Counted from the stretch's first letter, positions 37,725 through 54,360 are shown. The stretch is 64,000 bases of DNA from a virus (IMGVR_UViG_3300028454_000171:2540-66539), one strand, 5' to 3'. Notes: generated by a model from the sequence alone, not told the origin. Program-made: numbers and translations.

Positions 37725-37954
37725 TGGGAGCTTCGGATGTACTGCTTGCAGTAGCGTCAGAGCTATCCGCATTAGCCAAAAGCAATTTGCCAGAAATCCA
37801 TGAGGGGGAGGTAGTCAAGCGTGAATGGCTGGAAGATGGGAGATACTTCCGAGAAACAGTCCATGAGGGCAAGACCAGCCTTGTCTGGTATGATTTTAGG
37901 CAAAGAAAAAGCCACGATGGTGGCGAGAGGGAGTGTATAGAACCGTTGAGATAG
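37721..37954 (+). pseudogene. 5' half of a gene split by the inversion (continues in frame into 54,337-53,864 minus)
   Basis: Stop codon TAG is formed at the 12-bp junction; EPLR continues as PLRWLETLK on the other side. Confidence 0.75.
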
Positions 37955-37971
37955 TTTGCTGAATTTGCCTA
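37941..37971. other. Left inversion junction (12-bp core plus att-like arm)
   Basis: AACCGTTGAGAT is the reverse complement of 54,337-54,348; followed by arm AGTTTGCTGAATTTGCCTA. Confidence 0.85.
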
Positions 37972-38111
37972 CCATGTACTCCCGCCTCTTGATGCGGGCC
38001 AGCCGTCGCCACCGGCATGAAAACTGGCTATCAGTTGTGATGGGCAGCTTATCCACCCGCTGCCGAGTCCGTCTTTGAGCTTATAAGGAATTTTTCTTTC
38101 CCTATAATCTC

Positions 38112-38140
38112 ATCTTAGCATTTGTAGTCGTTACGGTCAA
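38112..38140 (-). promoter_or_regulatory. Variant copy of the repeated promoter
   Basis: AAAACTA-TTGACC-17-TAAGAT on the minus strand. Confidence 0.7.
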
Positions 38141-38188
38141 TAGTTTTTCGGAAATTTTTCCGAAAAGAATTCTGCAAACCTCCTTCTT

Positions 38189-38251
38189 GACCTGCCATCA
38201 TCAGAGCCGGTGGGTCAGTTCCGGCTGACCAGCCTTTCGGCTGGTTTCGGC
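38189..38251 (-). ncRNA. Type II hammerhead ribozyme HH1 (predicted cleavage between 38,227 and 38,226)
   Basis: GCC-GAAAC-stem III-GUC-stem I-CUGAUGA-U-GGC with loop I/3' tail pseudoknot. Confidence 0.92.
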
Positions 38252-38253
38252 TA

Positions 38254-38505
38254 TCAGCGGGACAGACAAGCCAACGCCTCCTTGTACCCGTGGCAATACG
38301 TGTAGTACACCGCCGCTGCTTTCCGGCTATAGCATTCGTCCAGCGGCTTCTCATAGGACTTGACGATGAACGGTGCGCCTGTCCTATCATCCCGAACGAT
38401 GCTGCGTTCTATCTTGCCATCGTCGTGGTAGACGGTCATGATGCAGTACCAGTACAAGCTGTCCCCGCGTTGGAGCTGGGTGGCCTTTTCCATTGCGTTT
38501 TCCAT
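38254..38505 (-). CDS. Small hypothetical protein upstream of HH1
   Basis: ORF ends 3 nt before the ribozyme. Confidence 0.65.
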   Translation of the reverse strand: MENAMEKATQLQRGDSLYWYCIMTVYHDDGKIERSIVRDDRTGAPFIVKSYEKPLDECYSRKAAAVYYTYCHGYKEALACLSR

Positions 38506-38525
38506 ATCATCAAGTCCTTTCTGCT

Positions 38526-38735
38526 TCAGAACAACGCAGGGTCAAAGCCCAGCGGGTATTCGCCTTCGCTCACGGGGCGGAGAATCATGTTGTACTTGCC
38601 CCATTTTTCAATCATGTCCGGGTCTGTCTTGAATGCTTCTGCATCCTGTCGGTCATCACCGAAGAACTCCCAGCAAACCGGGTGTCCATTTTCCCTAATT
38701 TCTATCCAGAACTCTTTCTTCGCTGCTTCTGTCAT
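38526..38735 (-). CDS. Small hypothetical protein
   Basis: First ORF after the promoter at 38,815. Confidence 0.65.
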   Translation of the reverse strand: MTEAAKKEFWIEIRENGHPVCWEFFGDDRQDAEAFKTDPDMIEKWGKYNMILRPVSEGEYPLGFDPALF

Positions 38736-38787
38736 GTCGTCCGACCCCTTTCGTTCCGTTCAAGTGGTTGTGATTTATCTTGTCTTC

Positions 38788-38815
38788 ATCTTAACACGCT
38801 ATCTGTATATTGCAA
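38788..38815 (-). promoter_or_regulatory. Repeated promoter TTGCAA-16-TAAGAT with extended -10
   Basis: Identical core to 40,354-40,381, 61,077-61,104 and 61,530-61,557. Confidence 0.85.
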
Positions 38816-39088
38816 TAGTTTTTCGGAAAATTTTTCAAGAAAATATACTCACAATCGCAAATGCAGACCGGTAGGCTACTGAATCGCCAAAAAGCGGGCT
38901 TCTGATACTCACTGAGAGCGTATTTACGCAGCTTGCGAAGGGGATTGTATTCGGAGGCGGCATGGAAGCTCTGAGAATCAAAAAGCCTCTGGACGCTTGA
39001 TTTGAGAGGGCTGGCACTGTGCAAAACGCGATGCCTTTTTGGGGAAAACGCGGACACAAAAAAGACCCGCATCTCTGCGGGTCTTCGC

Positions 39089-39307
39089 TCATTCTGTTGT
39101 CTCAGCTCTGTCTCGTGCCATCGTTTCAGTGATGGCCCTGACCACGAAGCCTTGCATACTTTCACCCTGCGACTCTGCATGAGCGCGAACAGCATTGCCG
39201 TTTACCTCCGCATCTTTCCGCAGACGGATCAGCAACTTATCATATGCCTTCTGCTCGTAACGGCTGGTTGCAGCCATGTGCGCCTTGCTCTGTGCCATCC
39301 CAACCAC
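39089..39307 (-). CDS. Arc/ribbon-helix-helix-like small DNA-binding protein
   Basis: YEQKAYDKLLIRLRK...HAESQGESMQGFVVRAITETM. Confidence 0.65.
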   Translation of the reverse strand: MVGMAQSKAHMAATSRYEQKAYDKLLIRLRKDAEVNGNAVRAHAESQGESMQGFVVRAITETMARDRAETTE

Positions 39308-39373
39308 ATCCTTTCTGTGCTATCATCATAACACGATAGCAACAGCAGATGCAAGGCACGACAAGCAGCCAGC

Positions 39374-39703
39374 TTACCAGCACATAGCAATGTAGCCGCC
39401 CACATTCATGCCCCTGAAGCCGACATACACAGACTTTGCAAGCCGCTTGAGCTGGGTCATCTGCTTGTCAGTCAGACAGCCATTCTTGGCATAGTACCGC
39501 TTGAAACTTGCGATGTACCCATAGCCCGCCGGAACAATGCCGTGGCGGCTGCTGGTTCTTTCAGAGGGACAGTTCATCATGGCATCAACCAGTTCCTCCT
39601 CGCTGTCGAACAACTTATCCCATGACAGCTTCTTCATGCTGATGTCAAATGCACTCACGTCTTTCATTGTGCTCATCCTTTTCATCGTGTTCAGTTGCAA
39701 CAT
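39374..39703 (-). CDS. Hypothetical protein (start uncertain)
   Basis: ORF downstream of the structured element. Confidence 0.6.
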   Translation of the reverse strand: MLQLNTMKRMSTMKDVSAFDISMKKLSWDKLFDSEEELVDAMMNCPSERTSSRHGIVPAGYGYIASFKRYYAKNGCLTDKQMTQLKRLAKSVYVGFRGMNVGGYIAMCW

Positions 39704-39726
39704 GGCTCTTGTCAGCCGTCTCGCAT

Positions 39727-39876
39727 TTTCGATTGCTAGAATGTCTTCGGTCTAGCTGCCGCGTCCTTTTCTCCAAGTGTTACCCCGGCCACCCCGGATG
39801 CTTCCTGAAAAGTACCGAAAAGCTACTGAGATCTAAGCCCAGCTTTTTCCTTTCAAAAAGCTGAGGAAAAATCAAG
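39727..39876 (-). ncRNA. Unassigned conserved structured element, copy A
   Basis: 31-nt and 25-nt blocks identical to 62,240-62,305; covarying hairpins. Confidence 0.6.
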
Positions 39877-39911
39877 TCTTTTACCCACTTACTAGGTGCC
39901 GTTGCGGTAGT

Positions 39912-39974
39912 GACCTGCCATCATCAGAGCCGGTGGGTCAGTTCCGGCTGACCAGCCTTTCGGCTGGTTTCGGC
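39912..39974 (-). ncRNA. Type II hammerhead ribozyme HH2 (predicted cleavage between 39,950 and 39,949)
   Basis: 63-nt identity with HH1; complete catalytic core. Confidence 0.92.
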
Positions 39975-39975
39975 C

Positions 39976-40302
39976 TTAGAATTCACGAATATAAGAGAGG
40001 TTCATGCTCTGGATTTCTGCTACGAATTTTGCACCTCTTGCAATTTCATCGGCTGCTTTCAAAAGCTCCTCGGTGGTAGAATCCCCGCCCATCCTGCAAA
40101 TGCTGGCAGAGGCCTCGATGTCGATGTGCGCCTTGTGGCTTTTCCAGTCTGTCTTGTCGAAGTTATTGTTCTGCATTATCTGAATGCTGATATACTCATC
40201 AGAGGTGCGCTTGTTGCTCCATCCAAGTGAGTTTTCTTCAATCTCGAAGCCGTACTCAGATGCCTTGCTGCGAATGATTTCAGCGATTTCATTTCTAGTC
40301 AT
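39976..40302 (-). CDS. Hypothetical protein upstream of HH2
   Basis: AGGAGG RBS after the repeated promoter; stop 1 nt before the ribozyme. Confidence 0.75.
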   Translation of the reverse strand: MTRNEIAEIIRSKASEYGFEIEENSLGWSNKRTSDEYISIQIMQNNNFDKTDWKSHKAHIDIEASASICRMGGDSTTEELLKAADEIARGAKFVAEIQSMNLSYIREF

Positions 40303-40339
40303 CTTGGGTTCCTCCTGTCATTCTGTTCAGGTGTTATGA

Positions 40340-40626
40340 TTTATCTTGTCTTCATCTTAACACGCTATCTGTATATTGCAATAGTTTTTACGAATTAAAT
40401 TCAATATATTTCACTAAAAGTCGTAATGTCCACGGACGAAAATTTTCTGCTCTCTGTATGCCTTCTGGTTTCCCTCTGGTCAGTTTTCCTGCGATAGCCT
40501 AAAGAAGAATATACGAAAATTATTTTTGCGCCGTAGGAGCGATATTCTCTGAGCCTTTGTGTGATAAGGGATTGCGGGCTTCGGAAAAGCGGAGAGGGGG
40601 CGGCTATGTTCACCGGGAAAACACAC
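40340..40626 (-). repeat. Repeat R, copy 2, with promoter at 40,354-40,381
   Basis: Reverse complement of the blocks in copies 1 and 3. Confidence 0.9.
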
Positions 40627-40666
40627 GAAAGCAGAAAAATGCCGAGGGCTGAAAAGCCCCCAGCAA

Positions 40667-41149
40667 CTATTTCTTCGGCTTCCAAGTCCCGATGGCTTCG
40701 ATGCCGAACAGCAGCACCGCCATATCCTCGAAAGCCCTGTCAATATACCGATAGAACGTGCGGCGGTCAACGTCGCCCAGGCGGGCGGCTATCTCCTCGA
40801 TGGTCAGCCGCTCGTCCGAAATATACCGCAGATACAAGGCATCCCATCGCATCGCCTCGTGGCGTTCCACGGCACTCTCGCACAGGGCCTTGTATGCCGA
40901 CAGCATCCTGTCCACATGGCTCATCATCAATCCTGTCTTCCGCTTCAGCGAGCATATGGCGTTGACCTCCAACGCCTCCGGCGAGACGTGGGCGTAATGG
41001 GCTTTCAGCTTGCGGTAATTCTTCATCAGGAGCTTCACGTCATGGTATCTAGCATCCAGCTCCTCCTTGACGATGCTGTCCCGCTTGGCTAACGCCTCAA
41101 CCGCCGCAATGCGGGCTATTTCCGCAATTTCTTCCTTCTGCATGGGCAT
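40667..41149 (-). CDS. Late transcriptional activator-like protein (RinA/ArpU/sigma region-4 type)
   Basis: C-terminal HTH LTIEEIAARL...RRTFYRYI; last gene of the replication module. Confidence 0.7.
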   Translation of the reverse strand: MPMQKEEIAEIARIAAVEALAKRDSIVKEELDARYHDVKLLMKNYRKLKAHYAHVSPEALEVNAICSLKRKTGLMMSHVDRMLSAYKALCESAVERHEAMRWDALYLRYISDERLTIEEIAARLGDVDRRTFYRYIDRAFEDMAVLLFGIEAIGTWKPKK

Positions 41150-41158
41150 CCTCCTTTT

Positions 41159-42538
41159 CTACCTGCATTGTCTGCACAATCTGCTTATGCGGGCTTTGAG
41201 GGCGGCAAGCAGGGCTTCCTGCATATCGCCCTTGTTCTTCAGTGCCTCCATGACCGTCTCATCCATCCCGCCCTGCACGACAAGATGGTGAATGACCACT
41301 GGATGCTCCTGCCCCTGACGGTGCAGACGCTTGTTCGCTTGTTCATACTGCTCAAGGCTCCACGTCAACCCGAACCACACGGCATGATAGCCGCCCTGCT
41401 GCAAATTCAGTCCATAGCCGCAACTGGCAGGGTGGGCGAGAAGGATGTCGATTAACCCGGCATTCCAGTCTGCCTCGTCCTGCGCTTGCGAGTAGACCCT
41501 GACCCGCAGCTTAGTTTTCGCCAGCGTATCAAGCAGCCGGTCACGGTCATGCTTGAAATCGTAAAACACGAGGGCGTGCTGCCCGTTCAACTGCTCGACC
41601 AGTTCCATGAAGGCATCCAGCTTGCAGTTGTGGACGGGGACGACCTTCCTATCCTCGCTGTAAACCGCCCCGTTGCAAAGCTGCAACAGCTTGCCCGTCA
41701 GCACCCCCGCACTGCCAGCGGTGATCGTCTCATCGTTCACTTCCAGCAGCAGCTCGCGCTCCAACTGCTCATAGGCTTTCTTCGCCTTGGCATCGAGAGC
41801 CACAGGAACCTCGTTATAAACGATGTCCGGCAAGCTGATGTAGTCGCTGGCCTTCATGCTGATGCAGATGTCGCTGATGGCCCGCTTAATCATCTCGAAG
41901 CTGCCGTCCTTCGGCTCGTAATTGAATATCGTCGTCTGGTTTCTCCTGCCGGGGACGAAGTACCTGTCGCGGTAAGCACCAAGAGTCTTGCCGAGCCGCT
42001 GACCCCCGTCCAGCAGGAAAATCTGCGCCCACAGGTCTTCCAGCCCGTTGCTTGCGGGCGTACCTGTCAGCTCCACAATGCGCCGGATGCGAGAGCGGAC
42101 AAGGCGGAGAGCCTTGAACCGCTTGCTCTGGCTGTTCTTGAACGAAGAGCTTTCATCCAGCACTACCATGTCGAAGGGCCACGAATTCTTGAAGTGCTCG
42201 ACCAGCCACTGCGTATTCTCGCGATTGATGACATACACATCAGCAGGGGTGGCAAGGGCTTTCAGCCGCTGGCTTACCGTGCCGAGGACGGGGACAATCC
42301 GCATCATCCGCAGGTGCTCCCATTTCCTCGCCTCGGCAGTCCAGGTGGCCTCGGCTACCTTCTTCGGCGCGATGATAAGCGGCTTCGATACCTCCCACCG
42401 ATTGTAGCGGAGGTCGTGGAGGGCGGTCAGCGTGATGACAGTCTTGCCGAGTCCCATATCAAGTAGCAAGCCGACTGCCGCATTGCGAATCACATAGTCA
42501 ATGCAAAACTGCTGATAGGGGTACGGCTTAAATTCCAT
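41159..42538 (-). CDS. SNF2-family helicase
   Basis: DMGLGKT, VVLDESS, LTGTP, QANKRLHRQGQ. Confidence 0.93.
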   Translation of the reverse strand: MEFKPYPYQQFCIDYVIRNAAVGLLLDMGLGKTVITLTALHDLRYNRWEVSKPLIIAPKKVAEATWTAEARKWEHLRMMRIVPVLGTVSQRLKALATPADVYVINRENTQWLVEHFKNSWPFDMVVLDESSSFKNSQSKRFKALRLVRSRIRRIVELTGTPASNGLEDLWAQIFLLDGGQRLGKTLGAYRDRYFVPGRRNQTTIFNYEPKDGSFEMIKRAISDICISMKASDYISLPDIVYNEVPVALDAKAKKAYEQLERELLLEVNDETITAGSAGVLTGKLLQLCNGAVYSEDRKVVPVHNCKLDAFMELVEQLNGQHALVFYDFKHDRDRLLDTLAKTKLRVRVYSQAQDEADWNAGLIDILLAHPASCGYGLNLQQGGYHAVWFGLTWSLEQYEQANKRLHRQGQEHPVVIHHLVVQGGMDETVMEALKNKGDMQEALLAALKARISRLCRQCR

Positions 42539-42851
42539 TTTCCATCACCGCCTTCAGCCTTCGTATGCTATCATCGTTCTCAATCTCAGCCAGCAGAGCC
42601 TTGACCTCATCTGCGCCTTTGACAACTCTCACATCAGCCCCGCGTTTCTTCAACTGCTCGACCGTGTGCCGCTGCAATTTCGTCAGGCGGCCAGTCTCGG
42701 TCTTCAGTTCCGCAAAAATCACTCTGCCCGTGGCGGTCACGATGATTCGGTCAGGGACACCCGGCGTACCGGGGCTGACGAATTTCATGCACATCCCGCC
42801 GAGCTTCTTCACGCCATCGACCAGGCGACGTTCAATCTGTTTCTCAAGCAT
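42528..42851 (-). CDS. VRR-NUC nuclease
   Basis: GTPGVPDRI...FAELK..GRLTKLQ. Confidence 0.9.
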   Translation of the reverse strand: MLEKQIERRLVDGVKKLGGMCMKFVSPGTPGVPDRIIVTATGRVIFAELKTETGRLTKLQRHTVEQLKKRGADVRVVKGADEVKALLAEIENDDSIRRLKAVMENGI

Positions 42852-42854
42852 AGC

Positions 42855-43130
42855 CTAACCTCGCCAAATCCAAAATCCCTCACGGGCAACGATGCGCGGC
42901 CCCTCGAAGCGGCGGGCATTTTTTATGCTCTGCCGCGAAAAGCCCAACTTCGCACCCTCCTCGAAAATCGTCTCGCGCAGCATCGAGCCGTGCGACTTCA
43001 GCAGCCCTTCAAGCCACTCGATTTTGTCGGCCTCAGCGGCGTATTTTTCAACCGGAATCATGGCGAAACAGCACCTCCAAATCCTTATATTACTCAATAT
43101 AGGTATATTAGGTACATTAGGCATATACAT
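42855..43130 (-). CDS. Small hypothetical protein (start probably near 43,060)
   Basis: ORF coupled to VRR-NUC. Confidence 0.45.
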   Translation of the reverse strand: MYMPNVPNIPILSNIRIWRCCFAMIPVEKYAAEADKIEWLEGLLKSHGSMLRETIFEEGAKLGFSRQSIKNARRFEGPRIVAREGFWIWRG

Positions 43131-43370
43131 TATTTACCTATATTCTCTAAAACACCTATTCTTCTATTCTATTAAGATTAAATGTTTCAATGTTTCAATA
43201 TAACTATAAGTATAGATATATCAAGGCTTCACGCCGAAACAACCCCGAAACAAGCCCTGAAACTTGATAACAAACTAGCCCGAAACAATGGGTTGAATTT
43301 CGTGCCTAAACTTAGACTTTCGTGCCTAAATTGTTCTGCAAAGTCGAAGTTTCGCCCCTTTGGAAACATC
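43085..43370 (-). other. Putative replication origin downstream of the primase gene (copy 2 of the origin-like segment)
   Basis: AT-rich tract, CGAAACAA and AACATTGAAAC repeats; homologous to 13,470-13,740. Confidence 0.65.
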
Positions 43371-43373
43371 TCA

Positions 43374-45785
43374 TCAACGCTTTCTGCGGAATCCCCTTTG
43401 GTATCCGCAGTACCCAAAGCGCAGCCCGTTCGAGGTTTTTTCCCACATCGGCATCGACCTCAATATGTCATTTATCTCAGTCGTCGTCGTGTAGGACAAA
43501 TCCTTCATCTGCCCATTCAGCACCTCGCACCATATCTCCAAGGCGCATACCCTGTCGCGGGGGACGAGGTTTTCCGCAGTCCCTTCGCCGTTCAGGAACA
43601 TACGCCTCTTTTCCAGCGACCACTTCTGCCAGTCTTCCGGCACGGGCCTCTCAAGGAACTCAGCTATCAAGCCTTCGAGGTTCCCAGCTTCGCGGTGTTC
43701 CTCCTGCACGACCTTGGCCTCGTTCTCCACGTCGCCGATAAGGTGCAGGCTCTCGCCGATGCGCCACCGCATGACAGCCTCTGCCCAAATCTGGTCGATT
43801 TCCTGATTGAGCTGCTTCCAGATGTCCTTCTTCCGCTGGAACACCCCGACATCCACAGGCCAAAACCGGCGGTTGCCTGTCCTGTCCCGCAGGAACTCGG
43901 TTGTGTTCGTCGTACCGAAGAACACGCAGCATCGTGGTATATCCTTGACGTGCCGTCCGTAGGCCGCCCTGAAGCGGTCATACCGAAGGCTCAGGAACTG
44001 CTTGATGCGGGACACATCCGTCTTGCGGAAAGCGTCCAGCTCCTGTATCTCGATAAGCCATACGCCTTGCAGCAATTCGCTGGCTTCCTTGCCCTCGAAG
44101 GTGCGGATGCCGTCGTTGAACCACCCACGGCTCATGCGGTCGAGAAAGGTGGATTTGCCGAGGCCCTGCGGCCCAGAAAGAATCAGCATCGTGTCATACT
44201 TGCAGCCGGGGGTCATGGCCCGTGCTACTGCCGCCGTAAACGCCTTTCGTGTAACGGCCCGCACGTAGTTGCTGTTCGCGGCGCCAAGGTAGTCCACCAA
44301 AATCGTGTCCAGCCTCGGAACACCGTCCCATTGCAGCCCGCTGAGGTAGTTCTTCACGTCATTGAACTTGTGCTTCTCGCTGTGGAGCGACAGGGCACCG
44401 TCAATCTTCCCGTTGCCTGTAATCTTGTAAACCTTCTCGAAATACCAGTACAGGCCCTGATTGTCATTGTCGGCCCATGCCCTGCGGCCCGCGAATGGAC
44501 TCCACGGCAATTCGCCGAGGATTTCCCCGCGCCCTGCGAACTCGTTCAATGCGAACTTGCCACGAAGGTTCGGGTCATTTTCCAGTATCAGCCAAATGTT
44601 GTCGATGGTTGCCTTGATGGCCCCGGTCTGGCTGTTCAGTTCCAGCTCCGTCGTCCAGTCCAGACTACCCTCGTCATCTTCGTGTGTGGCAAGCTGGCCG
44701 AAGTCGCTTACTGCTGATTCAGCCCGTTCCTTGGCAAGCTGCCTCGATACCTTGGCATCTGCCACAGCCAGTTCGCACATCATCTGATAAGAGGGGAGGC
44801 GGTTCGCCGGGGTGTTTGCCCCGGCATCATCATCTGCGTCCCCGAACTTGTGAAGCCTCACGAGGTCGAACGCATTGACCAGCCTTCCGCTGCAAGGGTC
44901 AGTGGAGTGGTGCGAGTAAAGGAACAGTCCATTGTCGTAAATAACGGCACCACCAGTGGTGCTGCCGCCAAGGTAGGTATATCGCCCTTGCATTCCGTCC
45001 ACCGGCGCGTAAATGCCGGGAAGGAACGTCTCCATTGCGGCATATATGTCATAAGTCCGGCAGAACGCCCCGATGATGCCAGCCTTTGTCACGGGATCTG
45101 ATTGCTTTGTCGCGAGCTTGCGATAAGCGTTTTCCGAGCCAGGGACTTGCGGCCAGTTCGTAACGTCCTTCCAGTCACCGTACCTCTCTGTGACGGCTTC
45201 GAGGAGGCCGTCCACGGACAGCATAGGCTTGTCCTCGAAGGTGAAGATGTATTCGCCGTCAGCGCAGCAGCTCGGCCAGTACATCAAGCGTGATGCCTCG
45301 AACGTGGTTGGGTCTGCGAACTCCATGCCGATAGCCGCAGCCATATATCTGGCGGCTGGCTCGTACTCGTCCGCCGATGCTGAACGGTCGAATGGCAGCA
45401 GGATGCGGAGCCGGGGAGTGGTGGGGGAGTGCTTGCGTGTGGAGTAGATGCAGTACCCGCACCCAAGTCCCTCCACACGACGCAGCACATCCTCCGTGCC
45501 TCCCGGCGGAATGTTGTCGAAGTCCAGCGTGATGAGGTCACGTCCCGTAACCGCACCGGCTTTGCGGCGGGCGCCGGAGAGGCTGCCCGCCACGAACCCG
45601 CCGATGTCCTTCTTGTCGTCCTGCTCGGACTTCTTCAGGGCAAGGTACTCAGCCATCGTCTCCGTGGAACGGCTGGGAATACGGAGCTTTTCATAGAACT
45701 CCGACAGCATCATGGTCTGCGGCTGCCAGCTTACGCTCCGGCGATTGCTGCCGACGGATAAAATGATTTTGCGGTCATGCTGCAT
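43374..45785 (-). CDS. Primase-polymerase/VapE-like SF3 helicase (virulence-associated E family)
   Basis: YSTRKH, PRLRI N-terminus; ILSGPQGLGKST; FFGTTN; RTGNRRFWP. Confidence 0.93.
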   Translation of the reverse strand: MQHDRKIILSVGSNRRSVSWQPQTMMLSEFYEKLRIPSRSTETMAEYLALKKSEQDDKKDIGGFVAGSLSGARRKAGAVTGRDLITLDFDNIPPGGTEDVLRRVEGLGCGYCIYSTRKHSPTTPRLRILLPFDRSASADEYEPAARYMAAAIGMEFADPTTFEASRLMYWPSCCADGEYIFTFEDKPMLSVDGLLEAVTERYGDWKDVTNWPQVPGSENAYRKLATKQSDPVTKAGIIGAFCRTYDIYAAMETFLPGIYAPVDGMQGRYTYLGGSTTGGAVIYDNGLFLYSHHSTDPCSGRLVNAFDLVRLHKFGDADDDAGANTPANRLPSYQMMCELAVADAKVSRQLAKERAESAVSDFGQLATHEDDEGSLDWTTELELNSQTGAIKATIDNIWLILENDPNLRGKFALNEFAGRGEILGELPWSPFAGRRAWADNDNQGLYWYFEKVYKITGNGKIDGALSLHSEKHKFNDVKNYLSGLQWDGVPRLDTILVDYLGAANSNYVRAVTRKAFTAAVARAMTPGCKYDTMLILSGPQGLGKSTFLDRMSRGWFNDGIRTFEGKEASELLQGVWLIEIQELDAFRKTDVSRIKQFLSLRYDRFRAAYGRHVKDIPRCCVFFGTTNTTEFLRDRTGNRRFWPVDVGVFQRKKDIWKQLNQEIDQIWAEAVMRWRIGESLHLIGDVENEAKVVQEEHREAGNLEGLIAEFLERPVPEDWQKWSLEKRRMFLNGEGTAENLVPRDRVCALEIWCEVLNGQMKDLSYTTTTEINDILRSMPMWEKTSNGLRFGYCGYQRGFRRKR

Positions 45786-46383: not shown

Positions 46384-46834
46384 TCGTCATGGCCTCCTTC
46401 AAATCTGCTTGCAGCTTTTTCACATAATACTCGGCAATATCGTCGGCGCATTCTTGGTACTTGAGTCTGTCTTCCAGCTCTTTTTCAAGTTGCTCCTTCT
46501 GCTGTTTGCTCAAGTGCGGGAGCTTTCTGCGGAGGTAGTCGCAGATAAGTCCAGGCGCATACGAGTGTCGGTTTACGGCGTATCGCAAGGCGAAAACCAT
46601 CACCGTAAAATCTTCCGGGACTACAGGGCGAAAGTTCCACATCTTGACCGCTACGGCCTTCGTTTCTGCGGAAAGGGCACGGCTGCATTTCGTGCATTCG
46701 ACAAAGCATTCGCCCTTGCAGTCCGGCAGGTCGGGACACATCTTCTTCAGCCAGTTAGGGTGAGTATGCGGGGCCACTTCAATCAGCGTTGCCTGTCCTC
46801 CGCAGATACAGGGCTTCAATTCCTCATTATCCAT
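46370..46834 (-). CDS. Lar-like (restriction alleviation) zinc-finger protein with C-terminal extension
   Basis: ELKPCICGG...VECTKC...AVKMWN. Confidence 0.65.
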   Translation of the reverse strand: MDNEELKPCICGGQATLIEVAPHTHPNWLKKMCPDLPDCKGECFVECTKCSRALSAETKAVAVKMWNFRPVVPEDFTVMVFALRYAVNRHSYAPGLICDYLRRKLPHLSKQQKEQLEKELEDRLKYQECADDIAEYYVKKLQADLKEAMTNDRE

Positions 46835-46845
46835 CGCAGGGCCTC

Positions 46846-47121
46846 CTAAATCTTGCTGTACTCGGCTTCTCTGGCTGCAATCTTTTTCTTGGCAAAGTCC
46901 ATTGCGAGCTTGGCAAATTCCTTCACAACCTCGACATCTGATTCATTAAGGACGACGCTTTCTTCGCCATCCTTCTCATAAAATGCCAAGCTGAAAGACC
47001 CGATATTGTCTATTTCTGTTTCCACCACTGCATAAAAACCTTCCATGTGGGCTATTTTGCCACCCAGCACTTCAGCCGCCTTGATTCGTTTCTTCTGCAA
47101 TTCCAGCTCATCCGATGTCAT
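46846..47121 (-). CDS. Hypothetical protein
   Basis: Operon ORF with RBS. Confidence 0.6.
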   Translation of the reverse strand: MTSDELELQKKRIKAAEVLGGKIAHMEGFYAVVETEIDNIGSFSLAFYEKDGEESVVLNESDVEVVKEFAKLAMDFAKKKIAAREAEYSKI

Positions 47122-47402
47122 GGCTGAACCTCCTTTTTCGCTGTCTCGAACGCCATCATCAGCCTCATACTGGCGTTCACCAGATGAGGCTCGGAGCGGT
47201 CGCCCATGCGGTACAGGTTGATGTGCCGCATGGCACGGGAAAGATGCTCGTCAGCAGGTATCTGCCGCCATGTCTCGCCGGGATGCTTCACAGCTCCCTT
47301 GGTCAGCCCTTCTGCAATGGCATCAAGCCAAGCAGGGGAGGTGTAGCGGTACTCATTCGGCTCGGTATCCTGCGGGAATTCAATCTGCGTTGTCGTTGTC
47401 AT
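47118..47402 (-). CDS. dATP/dGTP diphosphohydrolase-like protein (DUF5664-like)
   Basis: GAVKHPGETWRQ...AMRHI...HLVNASMRLMM. Confidence 0.65.
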   Translation of the reverse strand: MTTTTQIEFPQDTEPNEYRYTSPAWLDAIAEGLTKGAVKHPGETWRQIPADEHLSRAMRHINLYRMGDRSEPHLVNASMRLMMAFETAKKEVQP

Positions 47403-47670
47403 CTTTCAGTGCCTCCAAAAGCTTCTGGTGAAAGTCAATCCATTCGTCATTCATCTGCTTGCACAGTTTTGCCCAATCTTCATTCTGCTTGTCGATGAAG
47501 TCAGACCACTGATGGTTTATCTTCCAAGCGAACACCCATGTAGTGCCCGCCGCCAGCAATGATATGACCGTCAGTAAAGCCATCATAGTTTCAATTCCCA
47601 TTTGGTTCATCAGCCTCCACTTTCTCGAAACGGTATTTCTGTGGCGCATTGGGATACTTCTTGCGGTCAA
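47380..47670 (-). CDS. Small membrane-anchored hypothetical protein
   Basis: One TM helix; start uncertain. Confidence 0.5.
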   Translation of the reverse strand: MTARSIPMRHRNTVSRKWRLMNQMGIETMMALLTVISLLAAGTTWVFAWKINHQWSDFIDKQNEDWAKLCKQMNDEWIDFHQKLLEALKDDNDNAD

Positions 47671-47854
47671 CCTCGCTCATAAACATCGCAAGGGGACGTA
47701 CATAGATGCCCTCAGCGCCGTACATAGCCTGATAACAAATCATGCGTTCGTCAGTCTCCGTATGGAATACAGGACAGGCAATGACGCGATAATCGTGGTT
47801 CTTGAAATGCCGCCATGTTTCTCCGGCTTTCGGCAACTCTCTCATTCGCCCCAT
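47591..47854 (-). CDS. DUF1653-like protein
   Basis: GETWRHFK...HTET...YQAMYG...YVRPLAMFMSEVD. Confidence 0.8.
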   Translation of the reverse strand: MGRMRELPKAGETWRHFKNHDYRVIACPVFHTETDERMICYQAMYGAEGIYVRPLAMFMSEVDRKKYPNAPQKYRFEKVEADEPNGN

Positions 47855-48045
47855 TCCTCCTTCAATTCATCAATCAATTCCGACACTTCGGCGCGGGTCA
47901 TGCGGTCAAAGTCATAGTCTTCTTCATCATAGCCGAGCTTCTCCATCAGGTCTTTGGCATAGTCAATCTGGGCCTTTGTCGGTTCCATGCTGGCCACCTC
48001 CCTTCGGAGCTTTGTACTCCCGATGCCACCAGTTTTCACAGCCAA
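47842..48045 (-). CDS. Small acidic hypothetical protein
   Basis: PTKAQIDYAKDL...SELIDELK. Confidence 0.55.
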   Translation of the reverse strand: MAVKTGGIGSTKLRREVASMEPTKAQIDYAKDLMEKLGYDEEDYDFDRMTRAEVSELIDELKEEWGE

Positions 48046-48170
48046 GGCAGTTGAAATGGTTGCAGGCGTGATGGCCCTGCTTCAACGCCCCACAGGGCGT
48101 ACACATGAGCTTCATATTTTCGGGCTTGAAGTGAGCATCGAATGTCGCGTTCATGACCTCTATGAACTTG

Positions 48171-48809
48171 TCAAGGTTTGTCATGGCAATCTCCCAAATC
48201 ATCGAACACGCCTGGTATCATATTGCTCATCTGCGCAAGCAGGGGATAAGCGACCTCCCGCATCTGCGGATGAGCGTCAGGCGCAGCACGTTTGCGGAAG
48301 AACCACCGCCATTCGCGAAGGTTCGCAGTCATATACAACTCAGTCTTCAAGCTGTTGGGCAGTACACTCCGAGCCTCCTGCGGTGTGCAGCCGATGTTGA
48401 GCAGGGCGAAATAGGCTTCCTCAGCTTCTTCGCAAGCAGCTTTCCAGCATACATACCCGGCATCGCCCACGTCGAAAAATGGCGGCTTTACCACTGTGAT
48501 TTCCGAACCGAACTCACCCTTGGAATAGTTGCAATAGCGGGTGCTTTCCTGGGAATAGGATGCCAGTCTGTGCCGCACGATTTCATGCGACACACCACGG
48601 TCAACAATGAACTTGACGGTGATGCTGAAATGTTCCAGCACCGACTCATGCCCGCAGTCGATAATGGCTTTGATAAACTTCTGAGCAGAACCGTCAATAA
48701 TTCTGTCCTCTGACTTATAGCAAACACGTCCGCAGCGCTCAATGTGCTTTACGACGGCATTGCCGTCAAGCGGGGTCACGATTTCAATGCTTGGGGTTAC
48801 AATCCTCAT
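48171..48809 (-). CDS. thyX: Flavin-dependent thymidylate synthase
   Basis: GHESVLEH and RHRLASYSQESTRY signature. Confidence 0.95.
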   Translation of the reverse strand: MRIVTPSIEIVTPLDGNAVVKHIERCGRVCYKSEDRIIDGSAQKFIKAIIDCGHESVLEHFSITVKFIVDRGVSHEIVRHRLASYSQESTRYCNYSKGEFGSEITVVKPPFFDVGDAGYVCWKAACEEAEEAYFALLNIGCTPQEARSVLPNSLKTELYMTANLREWRWFFRKRAAPDAHPQMREVAYPLLAQMSNMIPGVFDDLGDCHDKP

Positions 48810-49087
48810 TTCCTTTTCCTCCTGTGCAATGGTTTCTTTCGCTTGCGACGATGCCGCTTGCTGTGCGCCATGCGTCGCAGGTACTTGGCTTTTCGCAGTA
48901 TCTGGTTTCTTAGGTCTGCTTCCCACAGCGGCATTGCCTCAATTATCCGCTTTATCTCTCGATACGCACGAACAAATCTCTGATACAGCTCGATGGCCAA
49001 GTCCTGCCAGCACCGCCAAAATTCCATCAGCTTCTCATTGAAGTCGGTCACAGCCATCAATCCTTTCGGAAGAACTCCCCAACCCAT
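48806..49087 (-). CDS. Basic hypothetical protein
   Basis: Operon ORF. Confidence 0.5.
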   Translation of the reverse strand: MGWGVLPKGLMAVTDFNEKLMEFWRCWQDLAIELYQRFVRAYREIKRIIEAMPLWEADLRNQILRKAKYLRRMAHSKRHRRKRKKPLHRRKRK

Positions 49088-51054
49088 CCGTCAGCGTTCA
49101 GGGGCAGCCCCTGCGCCCACGGTATCGGCTCAGTCATAATCCTGACCACGGCATCGAGGTTCGCCATGCTGACAGGGCAGTCAATGACTACCTCATCATG
49201 GACGTGGAACACGATGGGGAACCCGGCGGCTTCCAGCTTCTCAATCGTGAGAGCCAGACAGTCGCGGGCGATAGCTTGCACCACGTTCTCCACGAGCTTC
49301 CCGCCGTATGTCTCAAGCGACTCCCACCGCTTCGTGGTCTGGTTCACACCGCGATATGCTACCGATGGCCTGTCCCACTGATTCGTACCGAGAGAGGGGA
49401 AGGCGTAATAGAGCTTGCGCTGGCTCGGCAGGGTGATGGTCATGTAGTCCAGGCCGTTTGCCATGTCGAACTCTCGCGTGAACAGCAGACCGTTCACACC
49501 CGTCTGCTTCCCTGTCTGAATGGTGGCTACCGCAGCTTTTTCGACCCTGTACCACAAGTCCACGATGCGCTTGTTGGCCTCACGCCAGCGATAAACGATG
49601 TCTTGCAGGTCTTCCTCCGGGATGCCCATGTTCAAGGCTCCCATCTGGATAAGAGCGCCGACACCGCCTTGATAGCCGAGGGCCAGCGTAGCCACCTTCC
49701 CGCGCTGCCGCAGGGCGTATTCCGGGTTGCCCTTCTTGATTTTCTCAATCGGCACCCCGAACATCTGGCTTGCCGTGGCCTCATAAATCTTGCCATGCGT
49801 CCTGAACACTTCCAGTACCCATTCCTCTCCGGCGAGCCATGCAATGACCCTAGCCTCGATAGAGGAGAAGTCCGCATCAACCAGCATGTTGCCGTCGCCG
49901 GCGATGAACGATGTGCGGATAAGCTGGGAAAGCGTGTCCATCGGCGAGCCGAACAGGACTTTCAGCTTTTCGCCGTCACGCTTCTTGACCGCTTCGCGGG
50001 CCATCGGCAGGTATTTCAGGTCGATGTAGGTTCGGGCGAGGTTCTGCACCTGCACGAGCCGTCCCGCCCATCTGCCGGTTCGGTTCGCCCCGTAGAACTG
50101 CAACAGTCCACGGACTCTGCCATCGGCGCATACTGCCGCCTCAATGGCGTTGTATTTCTTGGTGCTGGTCTTGCCCAGCTCCTGACGGATTTCCAGCATA
50201 CGCTCGGCAGAGCCAGTCACGGCTTGCGTCTTGAGCATCTGTTCCACGGTGTCCTTGCGTAGATCGGGCAGGGTTTCTCCCGTCGTTTCCTCAAGCCACT
50301 TGGCAAGCTGGGCGATGCTGTTGGGATTTTGCAGTCCTGTGATGCCGATGGCCTCCTGCATTAGCCTGTCATGGGTCTTTCCTGCTATTTCCAAGGCTCC
50401 CTGCACCAACTCCATATCCACGGCCACACCGCGGGCATTGATGCGGAGGTCTGTCTGCCACTGCTTTTCAATGGCTTCCGGCACAGGGAAAGCTGACAGC
50501 CTCCGGTCGATTTCCATTTCAGTCGTGACATCACCTTGGCAATACTGCTTGAACAGCGCCCATTTCTCCGGGTCGTGCTTTGGATAGTTCCGCGTCCTGC
50601 CGCCGTTGGCTTTCGTCGGGTTGCAGGGAACGCAGAAGTAGCGAATCAGGGCTTTGCCCACAGACATCTTCTGCTTATCTGCGGGGAGGTTCAGAGCCTT
50701 GCCCGTGGCATCCAGCCCTGCCGTCAACCCGCAGTACAAGCCGTGCAGCATCGTGTCTCGCCATTGCTCAATTGGCAAAGGCCGTCCGCAGAACTTCGAC
50801 AGGCAGTACCACTCGAACGCAGCGTTGTATGCGTGTTTGACATACTCAGGGTCGAACAGCGCCTGGGCTATCCATTCTGGCAGTTTCTCGCCTTGTGCTA
50901 GGTCAACGATTTCCACGGGGCCGCCGTCTACGCTATATGCGAACAACAGTATCTCGAAGTCTCGGCTCTGGACGTACTTATACAGACCCGTTTTCGGTAT
51001 CGGTTCGCTGCTGAAAGTTTCAATATCAATCGAAAGATGCTTCACGGCAGCCAC
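49057..51054 (-). CDS. Family A DNA polymerase
   Basis: SIDIET exonuclease, DFSSIEARV motif A, RQRGKVATLALGY motif B, VHDE motif C. Confidence 0.95.
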   Translation of the reverse strand: MAAVKHLSIDIETFSSEPIPKTGLYKYVQSRDFEILLFAYSVDGGPVEIVDLAQGEKLPEWIAQALFDPEYVKHAYNAAFEWYCLSKFCGRPLPIEQWRDTMLHGLYCGLTAGLDATGKALNLPADKQKMSVGKALIRYFCVPCNPTKANGGRTRNYPKHDPEKWALFKQYCQGDVTTEMEIDRRLSAFPVPEAIEKQWQTDLRINARGVAVDMELVQGALEIAGKTHDRLMQEAIGITGLQNPNSIAQLAKWLEETTGETLPDLRKDTVEQMLKTQAVTGSAERMLEIRQELGKTSTKKYNAIEAAVCADGRVRGLLQFYGANRTGRWAGRLVQVQNLARTYIDLKYLPMAREAVKKRDGEKLKVLFGSPMDTLSQLIRTSFIAGDGNMLVDADFSSIEARVIAWLAGEEWVLEVFRTHGKIYEATASQMFGVPIEKIKKGNPEYALRQRGKVATLALGYQGGVGALIQMGALNMGIPEEDLQDIVYRWREANKRIVDLWYRVEKAAVATIQTGKQTGVNGLLFTREFDMANGLDYMTITLPSQRKLYYAFPSLGTNQWDRPSVAYRGVNQTTKRWESLETYGGKLVENVVQAIARDCLALTIEKLEAAGFPIVFHVHDEVVIDCPVSMANLDAVVRIMTEPIPWAQGLPLNADGWVGEFFRKD

Positions 51055-51425
51055 TCCTGTTCTTTAACAAACGCTAACCACTTCTGCCCCTTAACAATTT
51101 TGATGACATTCAGCAGTTTCTGGTGTTGCTTTTTCAACTGTTTTTCCGGCGTGGATTTCGGCCTGTTGACGTAGCCTCTGATGCGTTCTGCAAACAAGGC
51201 ATCAGACTGCTGGCGCAAATCCTCTGCTGTCTTCATGGCCAAATCGTGATTTTCCACGGCTTCTTCAAGAAGGATGATGAGCTTTTTTCGGTCATCCTCG
51301 GTACAATGCTGGCAAGCCAATTTCAGCAATTTCTTGATGGACGGCATTCCCATGCTGGAAAAGTACCGTTCGGCATTCACGCTGATGTTGCCAGTCATCC
51401 ATCTGACATGAAAATTATTTTCCAT
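51042..51425 (-). CDS. Hypothetical protein
   Basis: Operon ORF. Confidence 0.6.
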   Translation of the reverse strand: MENNFHVRWMTGNISVNAERYFSSMGMPSIKKLLKLACQHCTEDDRKKLIILLEEAVENHDLAMKTAEDLRQQSDALFAERIRGYVNRPKSTPEKQLKKQHQKLLNVIKIVKGQKWLAFVKEQEWLP

Positions 51426-51491
51426 ACTTGCGTCTCCTGATTACAAACCCCGCAGTCAAGGCTTTGGTTAACTGCGGGGTTCATTTTCGTA

Positions 51492-52157
51492 TCAATACAT
51501 CGGCTGTCCCGTAAGCGGGTTGATGGCTCCCGGCTGCGCCCCTGACGGAACAGTGGAAGGAGTTCCGGGGGCATAACCTGTCGCTACCGTAGCAGCTCCG
51601 GGGGTCATACCGATGCCAGCGAAGTCAGCCGCAGCAGATGCTCCACCTGCCAGCGGATCGCCGTCACGAGTCTTCATCACGTTGCCCAGGCCACATCCGA
51701 TACCACGCTTGCCAGCGCGGGCATATCCGAAGAAATTGATGGTAACGCGGGCATACATCCCGCTGTAAATATCCTGCGGCAGAAGCTCGGTGCTAATGTC
51801 ACTCTGGTGAACGACCTGCGGCTTATTCTTCGTGCTTGCGGTGATGACCCAGCACCCTTTGCACTCATCGCCATACGGCGTTCCATTCTCACGAACACCA
51901 TCGCCATCGTGGATGGGAACGGGCATGACAGGGGGGCGCACACCATTCCAAATCTTGCTCTGAGCATCAGCGGCAGCGGCCTCGATGCTGGCATCAATGT
52001 TCTGCTTAACAGCTACATCCGTCTTCGGGATGAGCAGAGTCACGGAATACTTCGGAGTTGCGCTGGGGTCATTGTTGTTCGCACGGGGCGCCACGAGGTT
52101 CACATAAGACAGGCGGACTTCACCGGTCAAAACTTTGGTAGGGATGTTGTTATACAT
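51492..52157 (-). CDS. ssDNA-binding protein (DUF2815/gp2.5-like)
   Basis: VRLSYVNL, KYSVTLLIPK, IYSGMYARV, GIGCGLGNV. Confidence 0.9.
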   Translation of the reverse strand: MYNNIPTKVLTGEVRLSYVNLVAPRANNNDPSATPKYSVTLLIPKTDVAVKQNIDASIEAAAADAQSKIWNGVRPPVMPVPIHDGDGVRENGTPYGDECKGCWVITASTKNKPQVVHQSDISTELLPQDIYSGMYARVTINFFGYARAGKRGIGCGLGNVMKTRDGDPLAGGASAAADFAGIGMTPGAATVATGYAPGTPSTVPSGAQPGAINPLTGQPMY

Positions 52158-52234
52158 ACTCTTTTCCTCCTCAACTCTTTACATTTCACTTTTTACGTTT
52201 TGCTCTTTACGTTTTACGTTTTGCACTTCACTTT

Positions 52235-53410
52235 TTACGCTTTATCTGCAACTGCCGCAAAGTCGGCAGCGGCTGAACTGAACTCAGGACGCTTGTCGCT
52301 GGCGGGGGCCAGCGTGGGCTTGCCCTGTGGCTTAGTCACGAAATCGCCAACTAGCTCCTCAAACTTCGGCTTGCCCAGCATCTTCTCAAGCTGGGCCAGC
52401 GTCTTGGGAACGCTGTCGTAAATCACAGCCCGGTCGACGCCCTTGGCTTCCAAGGCTTCCAAAGCCTTGTCTTGGTCAGACCATGCGCGGGAACTGCGGC
52501 CCTCGACAATCTTGAATCCGGGGATGGGGATGCCTTCAAGCATTCTCGCAAGGGCGGCTTCCTTCACGGCATTGAACCATTCTACTAGCGTCTCGCCTTT
52601 GCAGAGGGCCTCGCTCATCTCCTCAGGGGAGAGCAGCCCCGTCAGCTTGCTCTTTATCGCCGGGGCGAAATCGTCAAACGCCGATACCTGCTGGTCAGCT
52701 TGCGCCTTGCATTTTCCATGCGCTCGGCAGAATCGGCACCACTCACCTGCATGGTACTCGCCAAATCCCGCATAAGCCATCTGTGCCTTCGGCTTGATTT
52801 TCTCGCCCCAGGCAACAAGTTCTTCTGCGGTGCATTGCCAGCTCTCGTAGCTCCCAAGCCTCGGCTGGTCAATGTAAATCTCGACGTTCTTGATGGCTCC
52901 GCCGAAAATCGGCTGATAGAGCTTGAGCGCGCCCAATGCGTACAGCATGAGCTGCGGATTCTCCACGGCGCTTACCTTCACGCCCTTGCCATTCTTGTAG
53001 TCCGTGATGACTAGCGTGTCACCGCCGAACATGATGCAGTCGCACCGCCCGAATGCTTCCGGGACATAGGCGGAAATGTCAACGCTCGTCTCAAACGCAA
53101 TGTATGGCTCGCTTGCAAAGCTCATAGCTCTTTCGGCAAGATGCTCCACATAAGTCTCTGCCGAGCGAAGCATCTCATCATCCCATAGTGGGTCGGCCTT
53201 GAGCTTCTTGAGCGTTCTCGTGCAGCTCGCGGCCTTGATTTTTCCGAAATGCTTCTTGGCCATGACCTCGCATACGCTGTGGGCGAGCGTCCCTTCCTCG
53301 GCGAAGGCTGATGTCTTTTCCGGCAGTTCTGCCTCAAGCCGTGCAGATAACGAGCAGTTCAGCCAGCGATGCGCAGCAGACGGGCTGAGAAGTGCGTGGC
53401 CGGCGCTCAT
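52235..53410 (-). CDS. DUF2800 (Cas4-like PD-(D/E)XK exonuclease) protein
   Basis: HALLSPSAAHRWLNC, EEGTLAH, FGRCD, DYKNG, QLMLYALG. Confidence 0.9.
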   Translation of the reverse strand: MSAGHALLSPSAAHRWLNCSLSARLEAELPEKTSAFAEEGTLAHSVCEVMAKKHFGKIKAASCTRTLKKLKADPLWDDEMLRSAETYVEHLAERAMSFASEPYIAFETSVDISAYVPEAFGRCDCIMFGGDTLVITDYKNGKGVKVSAVENPQLMLYALGALKLYQPIFGGAIKNVEIYIDQPRLGSYESWQCTAEELVAWGEKIKPKAQMAYAGFGEYHAGEWCRFCRAHGKCKAQADQQVSAFDDFAPAIKSKLTGLLSPEEMSEALCKGETLVEWFNAVKEAALARMLEGIPIPGFKIVEGRSSRAWSDQDKALEALEAKGVDRAVIYDSVPKTLAQLEKMLGKPKFEELVGDFVTKPQGKPTLAPASDKRPEFSSAAADFAAVADKA

Positions 53411-53841
53411 ATCTTCGCCCCCAAATCCCGCATAGCCGTTGCAAACGCACCAAGCTGTTCGGGCTTCAGTTCCATTACGGCTTGAACGCCGAAGGAATGA
53501 AGCAGGTTAATCAGGTCATTCGCCTTGCCCGCATCCATCAATGTTGCACCGGCTGCCATAATCTGCTCCACGGTGTATTTCGGAGCTGCTGCCAACGGAA
53601 CTCCTGCTACCGGCAATCCCTGCTGTGCGGGTGCAGGCTGTGGAGCCGGGGCCTGTTGCGGCTGTGCCACGGGAGTCGGCACGGGCTGAGGAGCCTGAAC
53701 AGGTGCGGGTGCGGGTGCTACCGGTGTCTGCGCAGGTGTTGTCTGCTGCTGTGCTGGAATTTTCGCCCCCTGCAATGCCATTGCCAAGTTATTGATAGCC
53801 TCGGCAAGAGCCGCAGCTTCTACGGTGATTACGATTTCCAT
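53407..53841 (-). CDS. Pro/Ala/Gln-rich hypothetical protein
   Basis: RBS GAAAGGGG; typical position before DUF2800. Confidence 0.75.
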   Translation of the reverse strand: MEIVITVEAAALAEAINNLAMALQGAKIPAQQQTTPAQTPVAPAPAPVQAPQPVPTPVAQPQQAPAPQPAPAQQGLPVAGVPLAAAPKYTVEQIMAAGATLMDAGKANDLINLLHSFGVQAVMELKPEQLGAFATAMRDLGAKI

Positions 53842-53863
53842 GATTTTGACCCCTTTCATCACA

Positions 53864-54337
53864 TCAATAAAAATGGTTTTCTCGGTTTCCGCCGGAGCAG
53901 AAGAACCGAATATCTGACAACGGCTGGCATCCATTGTCGTGCCAGTCTGCCAATGTTTGCTCTGCAACAGCTATGTCATTTTCGGTTACGGGTCTTGACT
54001 GCTGCCAGTAGCCATTGAAGGCATTCGGCGTTTCTAGCACCTCAACCACGCTGTCCTTAAATCTGCTGTCGCTGACTCGGTTCAGGATGACTTCACACAC
54101 AAGCCGTTTGTCCTGCACCTTGTCTGAGTAACACTCACCAGCAAGCGTAAGAGCCATCGCCCTGACATCTTCTTCAGACCATCTGGGCTGTGCTTGCGGT
54201 ATCGGCTCCACAGGCTTCTGGATTTTTACAGCCATGACCGGCTTTTGAACTGGCTTTGCCTCATCTGTGGGCATGGCACATAAGGCGACTGTTGTAAAAG
54301 CAGCCACCGCTGTCACATCCTTTAGCGTTTCCAACCA
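53864..54337 (-). pseudogene. 3' half of a SleB-like cell-wall hydrolase gene split by the inversion
   Basis: ALTLAGE...VILNRV...F..SVVEVL...AF; no credible start of its own; in frame with 37,721 ORF across the junction. Confidence 0.75.
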
Positions 54338-54360
54338 TCTCAACGGTTTGCTGGATTTGC
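54337..54360. other. Right inversion junction / attP right arm
   Basis: ATCTCAACGGTT core plus arm ACGGTTTGCTGGATTTGC. Confidence 0.85.

Follow-up and report, generated by a model that had tools for sequence, protein, structure and literature searches.

Large serine integrases of temperate phages, such as those of phiC31, Bxb1, TP901-1 and A118, recombine a phage attachment site (attP) with a bacterial one (attB) to give the hybrid sites attL and attR, and reversal of the reaction needs a directionality factor. For two sites to be recombined by a serine integrase, their central dinucleotides must match, and engineered attachment (att) pairs are kept orthogonal through different central dinucleotides. 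Gin, Cin and Hin are small serine invertases, acting on two like sites with an enhancer, which switch segments of 1-4 kb with tail-fibre or flagellin genes freely in both directions. In the case of SprA/SprB of SPbeta at spsM and of SpoIVCA of skin at sigK, a split gene is restored by a regulated serine-recombinase event. PinQ is a further example of a small serine invertase (PMC12529663), a large serine integrase on its own drives the reaction one way (PMC12286644, PMC5737554), and in engineered latches a segment flanked by attP and attB is flipped by the integrase and reversed by the integrase plus a directionality factor (PMC6511857, PMC11891168). The present work analyses a stretch of 64,000 nucleotides of viral DNA (IMGVR_UViG_3300028454_000171, 2540-66539; the window, in which all positions are counted from the first nucleotide), where a 16.4-kb module of early and replication genes lies inverted between two att-like sites, junctions A and B.

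The window holds an integrated temperate phage belonging to a widespread family of rumen and gut Clostridia phages. Its module was very probably inverted by site-specific recombination at junctions A and B, and there is good reason to believe that the resident integrase carried this out. The explanation which we consider likely as a whole is that one large serine integrase serves two orthogonal att pairs, attP1 with a host attB for integration and attP2 with attB2 inside the phage, the second giving a probably reversible inversion. As in phiC31, Bxb1, TP901-1 and A118, the enzyme has three domains, attP is a site of ~40 bp with imperfect inverted arms about a central dinucleotide, recombination leaves hybrid sites and integration takes place into a host gene. 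Unlike those systems, the phage has a second, internal att pair in inverted orientation, whose product is a 16-kb inversion of phage genes, and attP1 of the window phage lies ~25 kb from int, not beside it. Serine-recombinase inversion between inverted sites, altering the genes expressed, is shared with Gin (G segment of Mu), Cin (C segment of P1) and Hin/Pin, but here a large integrase would act on dissimilar partner sites, what flips is a replication module, and the reaction is probably directional. While SprA and SpoIVCA rejoin a host gene by excision, here an inversion would rejoin the phage gene sleB with its translation start and promoter; and whereas the engineered integrase latches are synthetic, the phage layout would be their natural counterpart. 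No natural case of a phage genome with a serine-integrase inversion via a second, internal, orthogonal att pair came up in literature searches.

The att-like sites of module and prophage

The 12-bp sequence AACCGTTGAGAT at 37,941-37,952 recurs as its reverse complement at 54,337-54,348; the repeat lengthens to 16 nt with 15/16 positions matching, and direct 15-mers on the same strand, GTTTGCTGAATTTGC (37,954-37,968) and GTTTGCTGGATTTGC (54,346-54,360), adjoin its two copies. An earlier, sequence-only reading of the window had noticed this repeat, which is indeed present, and had proposed att-like breakpoints there; the arms do resemble the real attP of the resident serine integrase. The gene content and strand switches it described were confirmed by Pfam and by open reading frame (ORF) calls, and its flip arithmetic was reproduced, since turning the segment round in silico gives an open frame of 234 amino acids (aa; ..EPLR-WLETLK..) and a 15+10+15 palindrome, GCAAATTCAGCAAAC-TATCTCAACG-GTTTGCTGGATTTGC. 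Taken bare, the 12-mer is insignificant, as ~10 exact inverted 12-mer pairs are expected by chance per 18.5 kb; a repeat scan of the region listed 174 inverted pairs. The repeat becomes significant because it is located at both strand switches, is adjoined by the direct arms and forms part of a composite site conserved at both junctions in nine diverged lineages. The features concerned are as follows.

35,505-36,905, minus strand: large serine recombinase (integrase), 466 aa (Pfam Resolvase + Recombinase + Zn_ribbon_recom)
36,902-37,336, minus strand: cI-like HTH repressor, 144 aa (Pfam HTH_3)
37,503-37,724, plus strand: cro-like HTH gene, 73 aa (Pfam HTH_3)
37,721-37,954, plus strand: p77, a small conserved gene whose 3' end is the B-type arm of junction A
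37,929-37,971, plus strand: junction A, a hybrid attL/attR-like site, with an arm resembling the attP arms of relatives
37,972-54,319, minus strand: invertible early/replication module (Pfam; gene order the same in relatives)
53,864-54,343, minus strand: SleB-like cell-wall hydrolase (Pfam Hydrolase_2) with an N-terminal signal peptide
54,320-54,363, plus strand: junction B, the second hybrid site, by sequence likeness to attP arms
54,384-57,046, plus strand: 562-aa protein, family not assigned, and M20/M28-like peptidase, the first genes of an operon running to attP

Each junction is composed of one GCAAATnCnGCnnAC-type arm, four bases and an invariant central GA/TC. Along junction A there follow one another the B-type arm (3' end of p77), CGTT, the central GA (37,948-37,949), GATA, the P-type arm GTTTGCTGAATTTGC and CTA, and along junction B the B-type arm (5' end of sleB), the central TC (54,340-54,341), AACG and the P-type arm GTTTGCTGGATTTGC. 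As the centres read GA and TC on one strand, the two flanking sites are in inverted orientation, and recombination between A and B would yield an inversion. Across the nine lineages the central GA is kept in 9/9 and the arm positions mostly in 7-9/9, falling to ~4/9 directly outside the arms. The arms of A and B match the attP1 arm of the window at 13/15 and 14/15 positions, and the arm motif occurs in 3-5 copies per relative genome, with approximately zero for a reversed control pattern. In the species of G004 the two cores have only ~3 bp in common, yet the strands were exchanged exactly in the middle of the 10-bp spacer. From the likeness of the arms and this precision, junctions A and B are probably substrates or products of the resident integrase. 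That the conserved junction element might be a sigma-70 promoter was rejected, its hexamers being poor and its -10 overlapping the sleB start. Searches of IMG/VR with 18-mers of the junction cores gave only unrelated chance matches, one of them a terminator hairpin.

The integrase has the domains expected of a large serine recombinase (resolvase catalytic, 5e-40; recombinase, 4e-15; zinc ribbon, 2.5e-12; Pfam E-values). No second site-specific recombinase was found in the 66.5-kb record, ~75% complete by CheckV, where the integrase is the single PF00239 match and PF00589 has none; neither does a small serine invertase (~190 aa) lie beside the segment, the 466-aa integrase being the sole PF00239 match of the record.

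The third site, C, marks the end of the prophage.

62,402-62,445, plus strand: site C, prophage end (attR-like); a full 40-bp palindrome there in free relatives, host-split in proviruses
62,426-64,000, no strand given: host DNA, with a macro-domain gene that has phage sequence in place of its 5' end (Pfam Macro) and a C_GCAxxG_C_C gene (PF09719)

It reads TAG, P-type arm GCAAATCCGGCAAAC (62,405-62,419), TGTC, central AA (62,424-62,425) and then host DNA; in relatives it lies 7-10 kb past junction B. The palindrome is intact in G016, G008, G005 and G021, for example as TATAGGCAAATTCAGCAGAC-CATCTTGATA-GATAGCTGAATTTGCCTATA; host DNA interrupts it in the window, in Butyricicoccus pullicaecorum DSM 23266 and in G004, G017 and G023, the last being the contig of L160. 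The provirus G004 contains the same phage (94-99.9% identity), severed precisely at the spacer of site C with the overlap CTTG, so that one arm plus CATCTTG abuts host DNA at 58.6 kb and host DNA plus CTTGATA and the other arm stand at 0.5 kb. Thus, an attP of ~40 bp with imperfect inverted arms and hybrid products sharing a short core are both present, and site C is, to judge from these ends, the true attP of the phage (attP1). With the hybrid at site C followed by the macro-domain gene and a second host-type gene, the window holds an integrated prophage, and its contig stops before the other end. The macro-domain ORF (62,385-62,876) takes its first residues and TTG start from the phage, and its Pfam domain begins at residue 13.

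The centre is TC/GA at A, B, attP2 and attB2 in the window, the species of L084 and G021, and AA/TT at attP1 and its products in the window, G016, G005, G021 and G023; since these dinucleotides differ, the two pairs are not expected to cross-react. Two other readings were discarded. The third arm at 62,405, taken as a chance match, proved to be the prophage end. The hairpin adjoining int (35,455-35,500) has a perfect 16-bp stem flanked by runs of A and T and separates a small gene from the stop codon of the integrase; it is no attP but a terminator of the usual bidirectional kind, and relatives have unrelated hairpins there.

Some further observations concern integration and the integrase gene. 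The near-identical phage L160 is integrated at a different host site from the window. The IMG/VR contigs G006, G010 and G011 have both termini within the attP1 palindrome, with arms at positions 8-54 and among the final 20 nt; assembly breaks at att sites in this phage family may reflect mixed integrated and free forms. A 2.9-kb insertion by the integrase gene (G004 34,050-36,996) separates G004 from the otherwise 99.9% identical G017, and the integrase ORF of G017 (509 aa) has a different C-terminus.

Both orientations among related phages

A megablast of the region against GenBank phages gave zero matches, and relatives were obtained from protein-level synteny and motif searches. The inverted layout of the window is found in ~40 related loci. 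A tblastn synteny map gave it for ~24 IMG/VR/ENA loci; all (16/16) of the IMG/VR genomes with both p77 and sleB have it, as do 17 loci from metagenome-assembled genomes (MAGs) or isolates, among them L159, L160 and B. pullicaecorum DSM 23266, whose inverted prophage lies at G024:C33, ~121.3-178.9 kb; three further inverted loci were typed from the junction B motif alone. On independent inverted contigs the M20 and 562-aa genes diverge from sleB, DUF2800, SSB, PolA, VapE, SNF2 and the regulator, and this module block converges on p77 and cro, after which cI and the integrase follow. L159 and L160, both inverted and from deer rumen, are near-identical to the window (94-100% protein identity). 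The MAGs to which their contigs were assigned, both from water deer, carry the labels Selenomonas and Mailhella, and with such conflicting host labels the binning of these phage contigs is unreliable.

The co-linear layout occurs in three lineages (7 contigs). In L010 and four other contigs, one of 70 kb, the integrase and cI share a strand, and cro, p77, sleB and the genes from DUF2800 to VapE occupy the opposite one. G021:C186, reached from L183, is a single, circularly permuted contig of 57.6 kb which is co-linear throughout and has both junctions. L084 (sample 3300029782) was obtained by a pattern search for the palindrome. There GCAAATGCGGCAGAC-CTTTTCAATA-GTTTGCTGGATTTGA comes after the final gene of the module, and the operon beyond it has the same direction; at every base, this junction agrees with a composite of the reverse complement of the right half of A, TC and the reverse complement of the left half of B of its inverted kin. 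The same pattern in metagenome contigs of the Joint Genome Institute had 18 matches, all of them unrelated hairpins.

L084 is 97.2-98.6% identical over 8.2 kb to the inverted genomes G004, G008 and G016-G018 and 95.9% to G015, reaching up to 99.7% over 1.5 kb, and it nests within the tree of these six inverted genomes, which differ mutually by up to 4.7%. Both orientations are therefore present among closely related genomes (L084 against G004, G008 and G015-G018), the comparison being one between assemblies, and the nesting and identity indicate that orientation was switched recently within one species. Thus, the inversion relative to a natural co-linear arrangement put forward in the sequence-only reading agrees with three co-linear lineages, and the palindrome that it predicted exists in nature, in L084 and G021:C186. 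Of the two outcomes that it offered, the accident of a single prophage does not hold, as ~40 related loci have the same layout. An assembly chimera is very unlikely, the same junctions having been assembled independently dozens of times, including in an isolate genome.

All the integrated genomes examined (5/5) are inverted, and the sole genome both co-linear and complete, G021, has an intact attP1. Nevertheless, inversion is not strictly tied to integration, because inverted genomes with an intact attP1 also occur. The one-way reaction of an integrase acting alone would explain the dominance of the recombined state.

Translation start and transcription across the junctions

The 234-aa frame had been taken in the sequence-only reading for an ancestral gene split by the inversion. 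Nevertheless, relatives, un-inverted ones included, have two separate genes, and no fused p77-SleB homologue occurs among the p77 or SleB relatives searched. A HMMER search gave 51 homologues of p77, nearly all of 44-96 aa, with stand-alone family members of 64-81 aa, and aligned over residues 1 to ~65; a search restricted to longer proteins found none containing the 77-aa ORF. p77 always lies directly 3' of cro and is 49% identical to the 66-aa gene which follows cro in L005. The relatives of SleB (122 matches) are stand-alone proteins of ~120-200 aa, around 150, with a signal peptide or lipobox; an exact-peptide search for SleB in IMG/VR had no match. In the naturally co-linear L010 group, p77 (74 aa) and sleB (161 aa) are separate genes overlapping by ATGA.

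The description of sleB as start-less stands in part. The window retains in-frame starts at TTG 54,343, TTG 54,334 and GTG 54,316, but no good ribosome-binding site precedes any of them; the GTG is where the nearest homologue, P0003 (96% identical), begins. As far as can be read from the junctions, the true effect of the inversion is to part sleB from the ribosome-binding site and start codon that belong to it. When the co-linear junction was rebuilt in silico, the A-side ribosome-binding site and start codon were in frame with the B-side SleB signal peptide in 8/9 lineages (L005, G001, G002, G003, G004, G005, G006 and the G008-type), the exception being the window. The frame offsets vary between lineages (-6, -11, -12), and in the inverted G003, G005 and G008-type genomes sleB has no usable start at junction B. 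With ribosome-binding site and start kept in frame across the junctions in 8/9 lineages, the co-linear orientation looks selected for; selection appears to keep this state functional even in genomes found inverted.

Transcription across the junctions was assessed with a consensus scan, which gave the following sites.

37,352-37,443, no strand given: divergent promoter-like pair between cI and cro
38,112-38,140, minus strand: TG-extended promoter-like site TTGACC-17-TAAGAT

The pair, a strong one, comprises a minus-strand promoter, TTGACG-17-TATAAT (37,380-37,352), and the plus-strand cro promoter, TTGACA-17-TAAGAT with TG (37,415-37,443), with 11/12 and 10/12 consensus matches. The site at 38,140-38,112 fires across junction A with no ORF ahead; re-inverted, it would face the 562-aa operon. 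At junction B the scan, a crude one, found no sigma-70-like promoter on either strand. The 562-aa operon diverges from sleB in the orientation of the window, and the same gene pair adjoins sleB in ~40 relatives. The scan bears out the claim, made earlier for the window, that the replication module is uncoupled from the cro promoter, and the orientation may alter gene expression, to judge from the promoter positions and from the separation of the sleB start from the body of the gene. The cI and integrase genes overlap by 4 nt (36,902-36,905), which suggests that the integrase may be co-expressed with the repressor in lysogens.

The module contains small genes with repeated promoter/operator cassettes, an HTH_23 regulator, SNF2, VRR-NUC, a VapE primase-helicase and ThyX, together with PolA, an Enc34-type SSB, a DUF2800 nuclease, a 186-aa protein and the SleB-like hydrolase (Pfam). 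In its distal part, a promoter-like cassette with the palindromic TTTTCGGAAA..TTTCCGAAAA is present in three copies (38,138-38,166, 38,813-38,841 and 40,379-40,407), and a perfect direct repeat of 64 nt with hairpins occupies 38,188-38,251 and 39,911-39,974; these look like repeated regulated units before small genes. Between the SSB and DUF2800 genes there are four tandem 14-nt units (TTTACGTTTT-like; 52,178-52,243), possibly iterons.

The proposed switch and the alternatives to it

According to the explanation based on two att pairs, pair 1 (attP1 and the host attB, centre AA/TT) would integrate the phage, leaving in the window the hybrid at 62,405 by the macro-domain gene, while pair 2 (attP2 and attB2, centre TC/GA) would lie inside the phage in inverted orientation. 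Here attB2 would be the place where the p77 stop meets the sleB start, and attP2 the palindrome that separates the last part of the replication module from the 562-aa operon. A reaction between the sites of pair 2 would invert the 16.4-kb module, the window representing the recombined state and its 12-bp repeat the core shared by the hybrid sites. In that state the module would be off the cro promoter, behind which only cro and p77 would remain in the integrated prophage, sleB would be cut from its ribosome-binding site and start, and the 562-aa operon would receive no read-through from the module. Integrase and a putative directionality factor would then re-invert the module into one long lytic transcription unit, the co-linear state reading in one direction through cro, p77, sleB, the replication genes, the regulator, the 562-aa operon, attP1 and the packaging genes. 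That such a reversible switch is used and selected for is, on balance, the view we lean towards.

A more tentative extension, doubtful as a whole, is a two-lock switch between lysis and lysogeny, in which the integrase both integrates at attP1 and flips the module at attP2/attB2, with p77 as its directionality factor. At lysogenisation, integration at attP1 would sever late from early genes while the module flips; in the locked prophage, cro and p77 alone would stay wired to the cro promoter; and upon induction p77 would drive excision and re-inversion together, rebuilding a single lytic operon. The candidacy of p77 is speculative. Its AlphaFold model (pLDDT 87) has one helix and four strands, in a fold that resembles no known directionality factor; there was no structural match below E 0.09, no sequence match in PDB and no Pfam or PHROG family.

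Several points weigh against a working switch. The window's own species is only seen inverted (L159, L160), genomes with an intact attP1 (G016, G008, G005) are likewise inverted, and the L084 contig stops 67 nt beyond its junction. Regarding the sites, the B-type arms are only weakly symmetric, and the second arm of attP2 is degenerate in G021, so that some lineages may be frozen. In the window, re-inversion would fuse p77 to SleB, there being neither stop nor ATG before the core, which is also the reason why a fusion had been seen in it; this copy may be drifting. Finally, the inverted form may be fully lytic-competent through promoters which the consensus scan missed.

These points give some room to the alternative that survives best, unlikely as we hold it to be, namely an ancient inversion fixed in the family. 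The inverted form would then be normal and functional, the arms would persist because they bind the integrase or a regulator or overlap gene ends, and the co-linear genomes would be by-products with no regulatory role. The count of ~40 inverted loci against 7 co-linear contigs is in its favour, as are the inverted genomes with intact attP1, the absence of the co-linear form from the window's species and the crudeness of the promoter scan. Nevertheless, one co-linear genome falls inside a single species, with 97-99% identity, and a frame-compensated ribosome-binding site and start are kept at A, where they serve no purpose when inverted, while some lineages have no usable sleB start at B. In addition, conservation drops sharply beyond the arms, which is consistent with an att-sized site bound by protein.

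It is considerably less probable that another agent made the inversion, be it homologous recombination at the short core or a host or second recombinase. The incompleteness of the record (~75% by CheckV), the 12-16 bp core of the window and an assignment of the enzyme made from sequence would allow it, but the G004-species cores, with ~3 bp in common, are still exchanged exactly at the midpoint of the 10-bp spacer, the arms match those of attP1 in these phages, and the record yielded no second recombinase. A one-off accident that split a 234-aa gene and locked this one prophage is hardly credible: the in-silico flip does give an open 234-aa frame, but no fused homologue was found, the natural co-linear relatives carry two genes, and layout and sites are family-wide. 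Equally slight is the chance that the repeat is fortuitous or the junctions chimeric, since, for all that exact inverted 12-mer pairs are expected by chance in 18.5 kb and the record is a metagenome contig, the junctions recur in dozens of independent assemblies, an isolate genome among them, the sites are conserved, and A and B have no common k-mer long enough for a chimera.

The explanation based on two att pairs also has consequences for annotation: attP can be far from int, a gene at a strand switch that seems to lack a start can be one half of an invertible junction, and metagenome contigs may break at such att sites. For synthetic biology, it would offer new, naturally paired att sites for one enzyme, in a layout mirroring the independently built latch and dinucleotide-orthogonality designs. 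A cultured lysogen, B. pullicaecorum DSM 23266, carries a member of the phage family. If the explanation is true, a phage has naturally reused its integration enzyme on an internal, orthogonal att pair, reversing a whole replication module, and a common family of gut and rumen phages would possess a hard-wired layer of lysis-lysogeny control at the level of the DNA itself.

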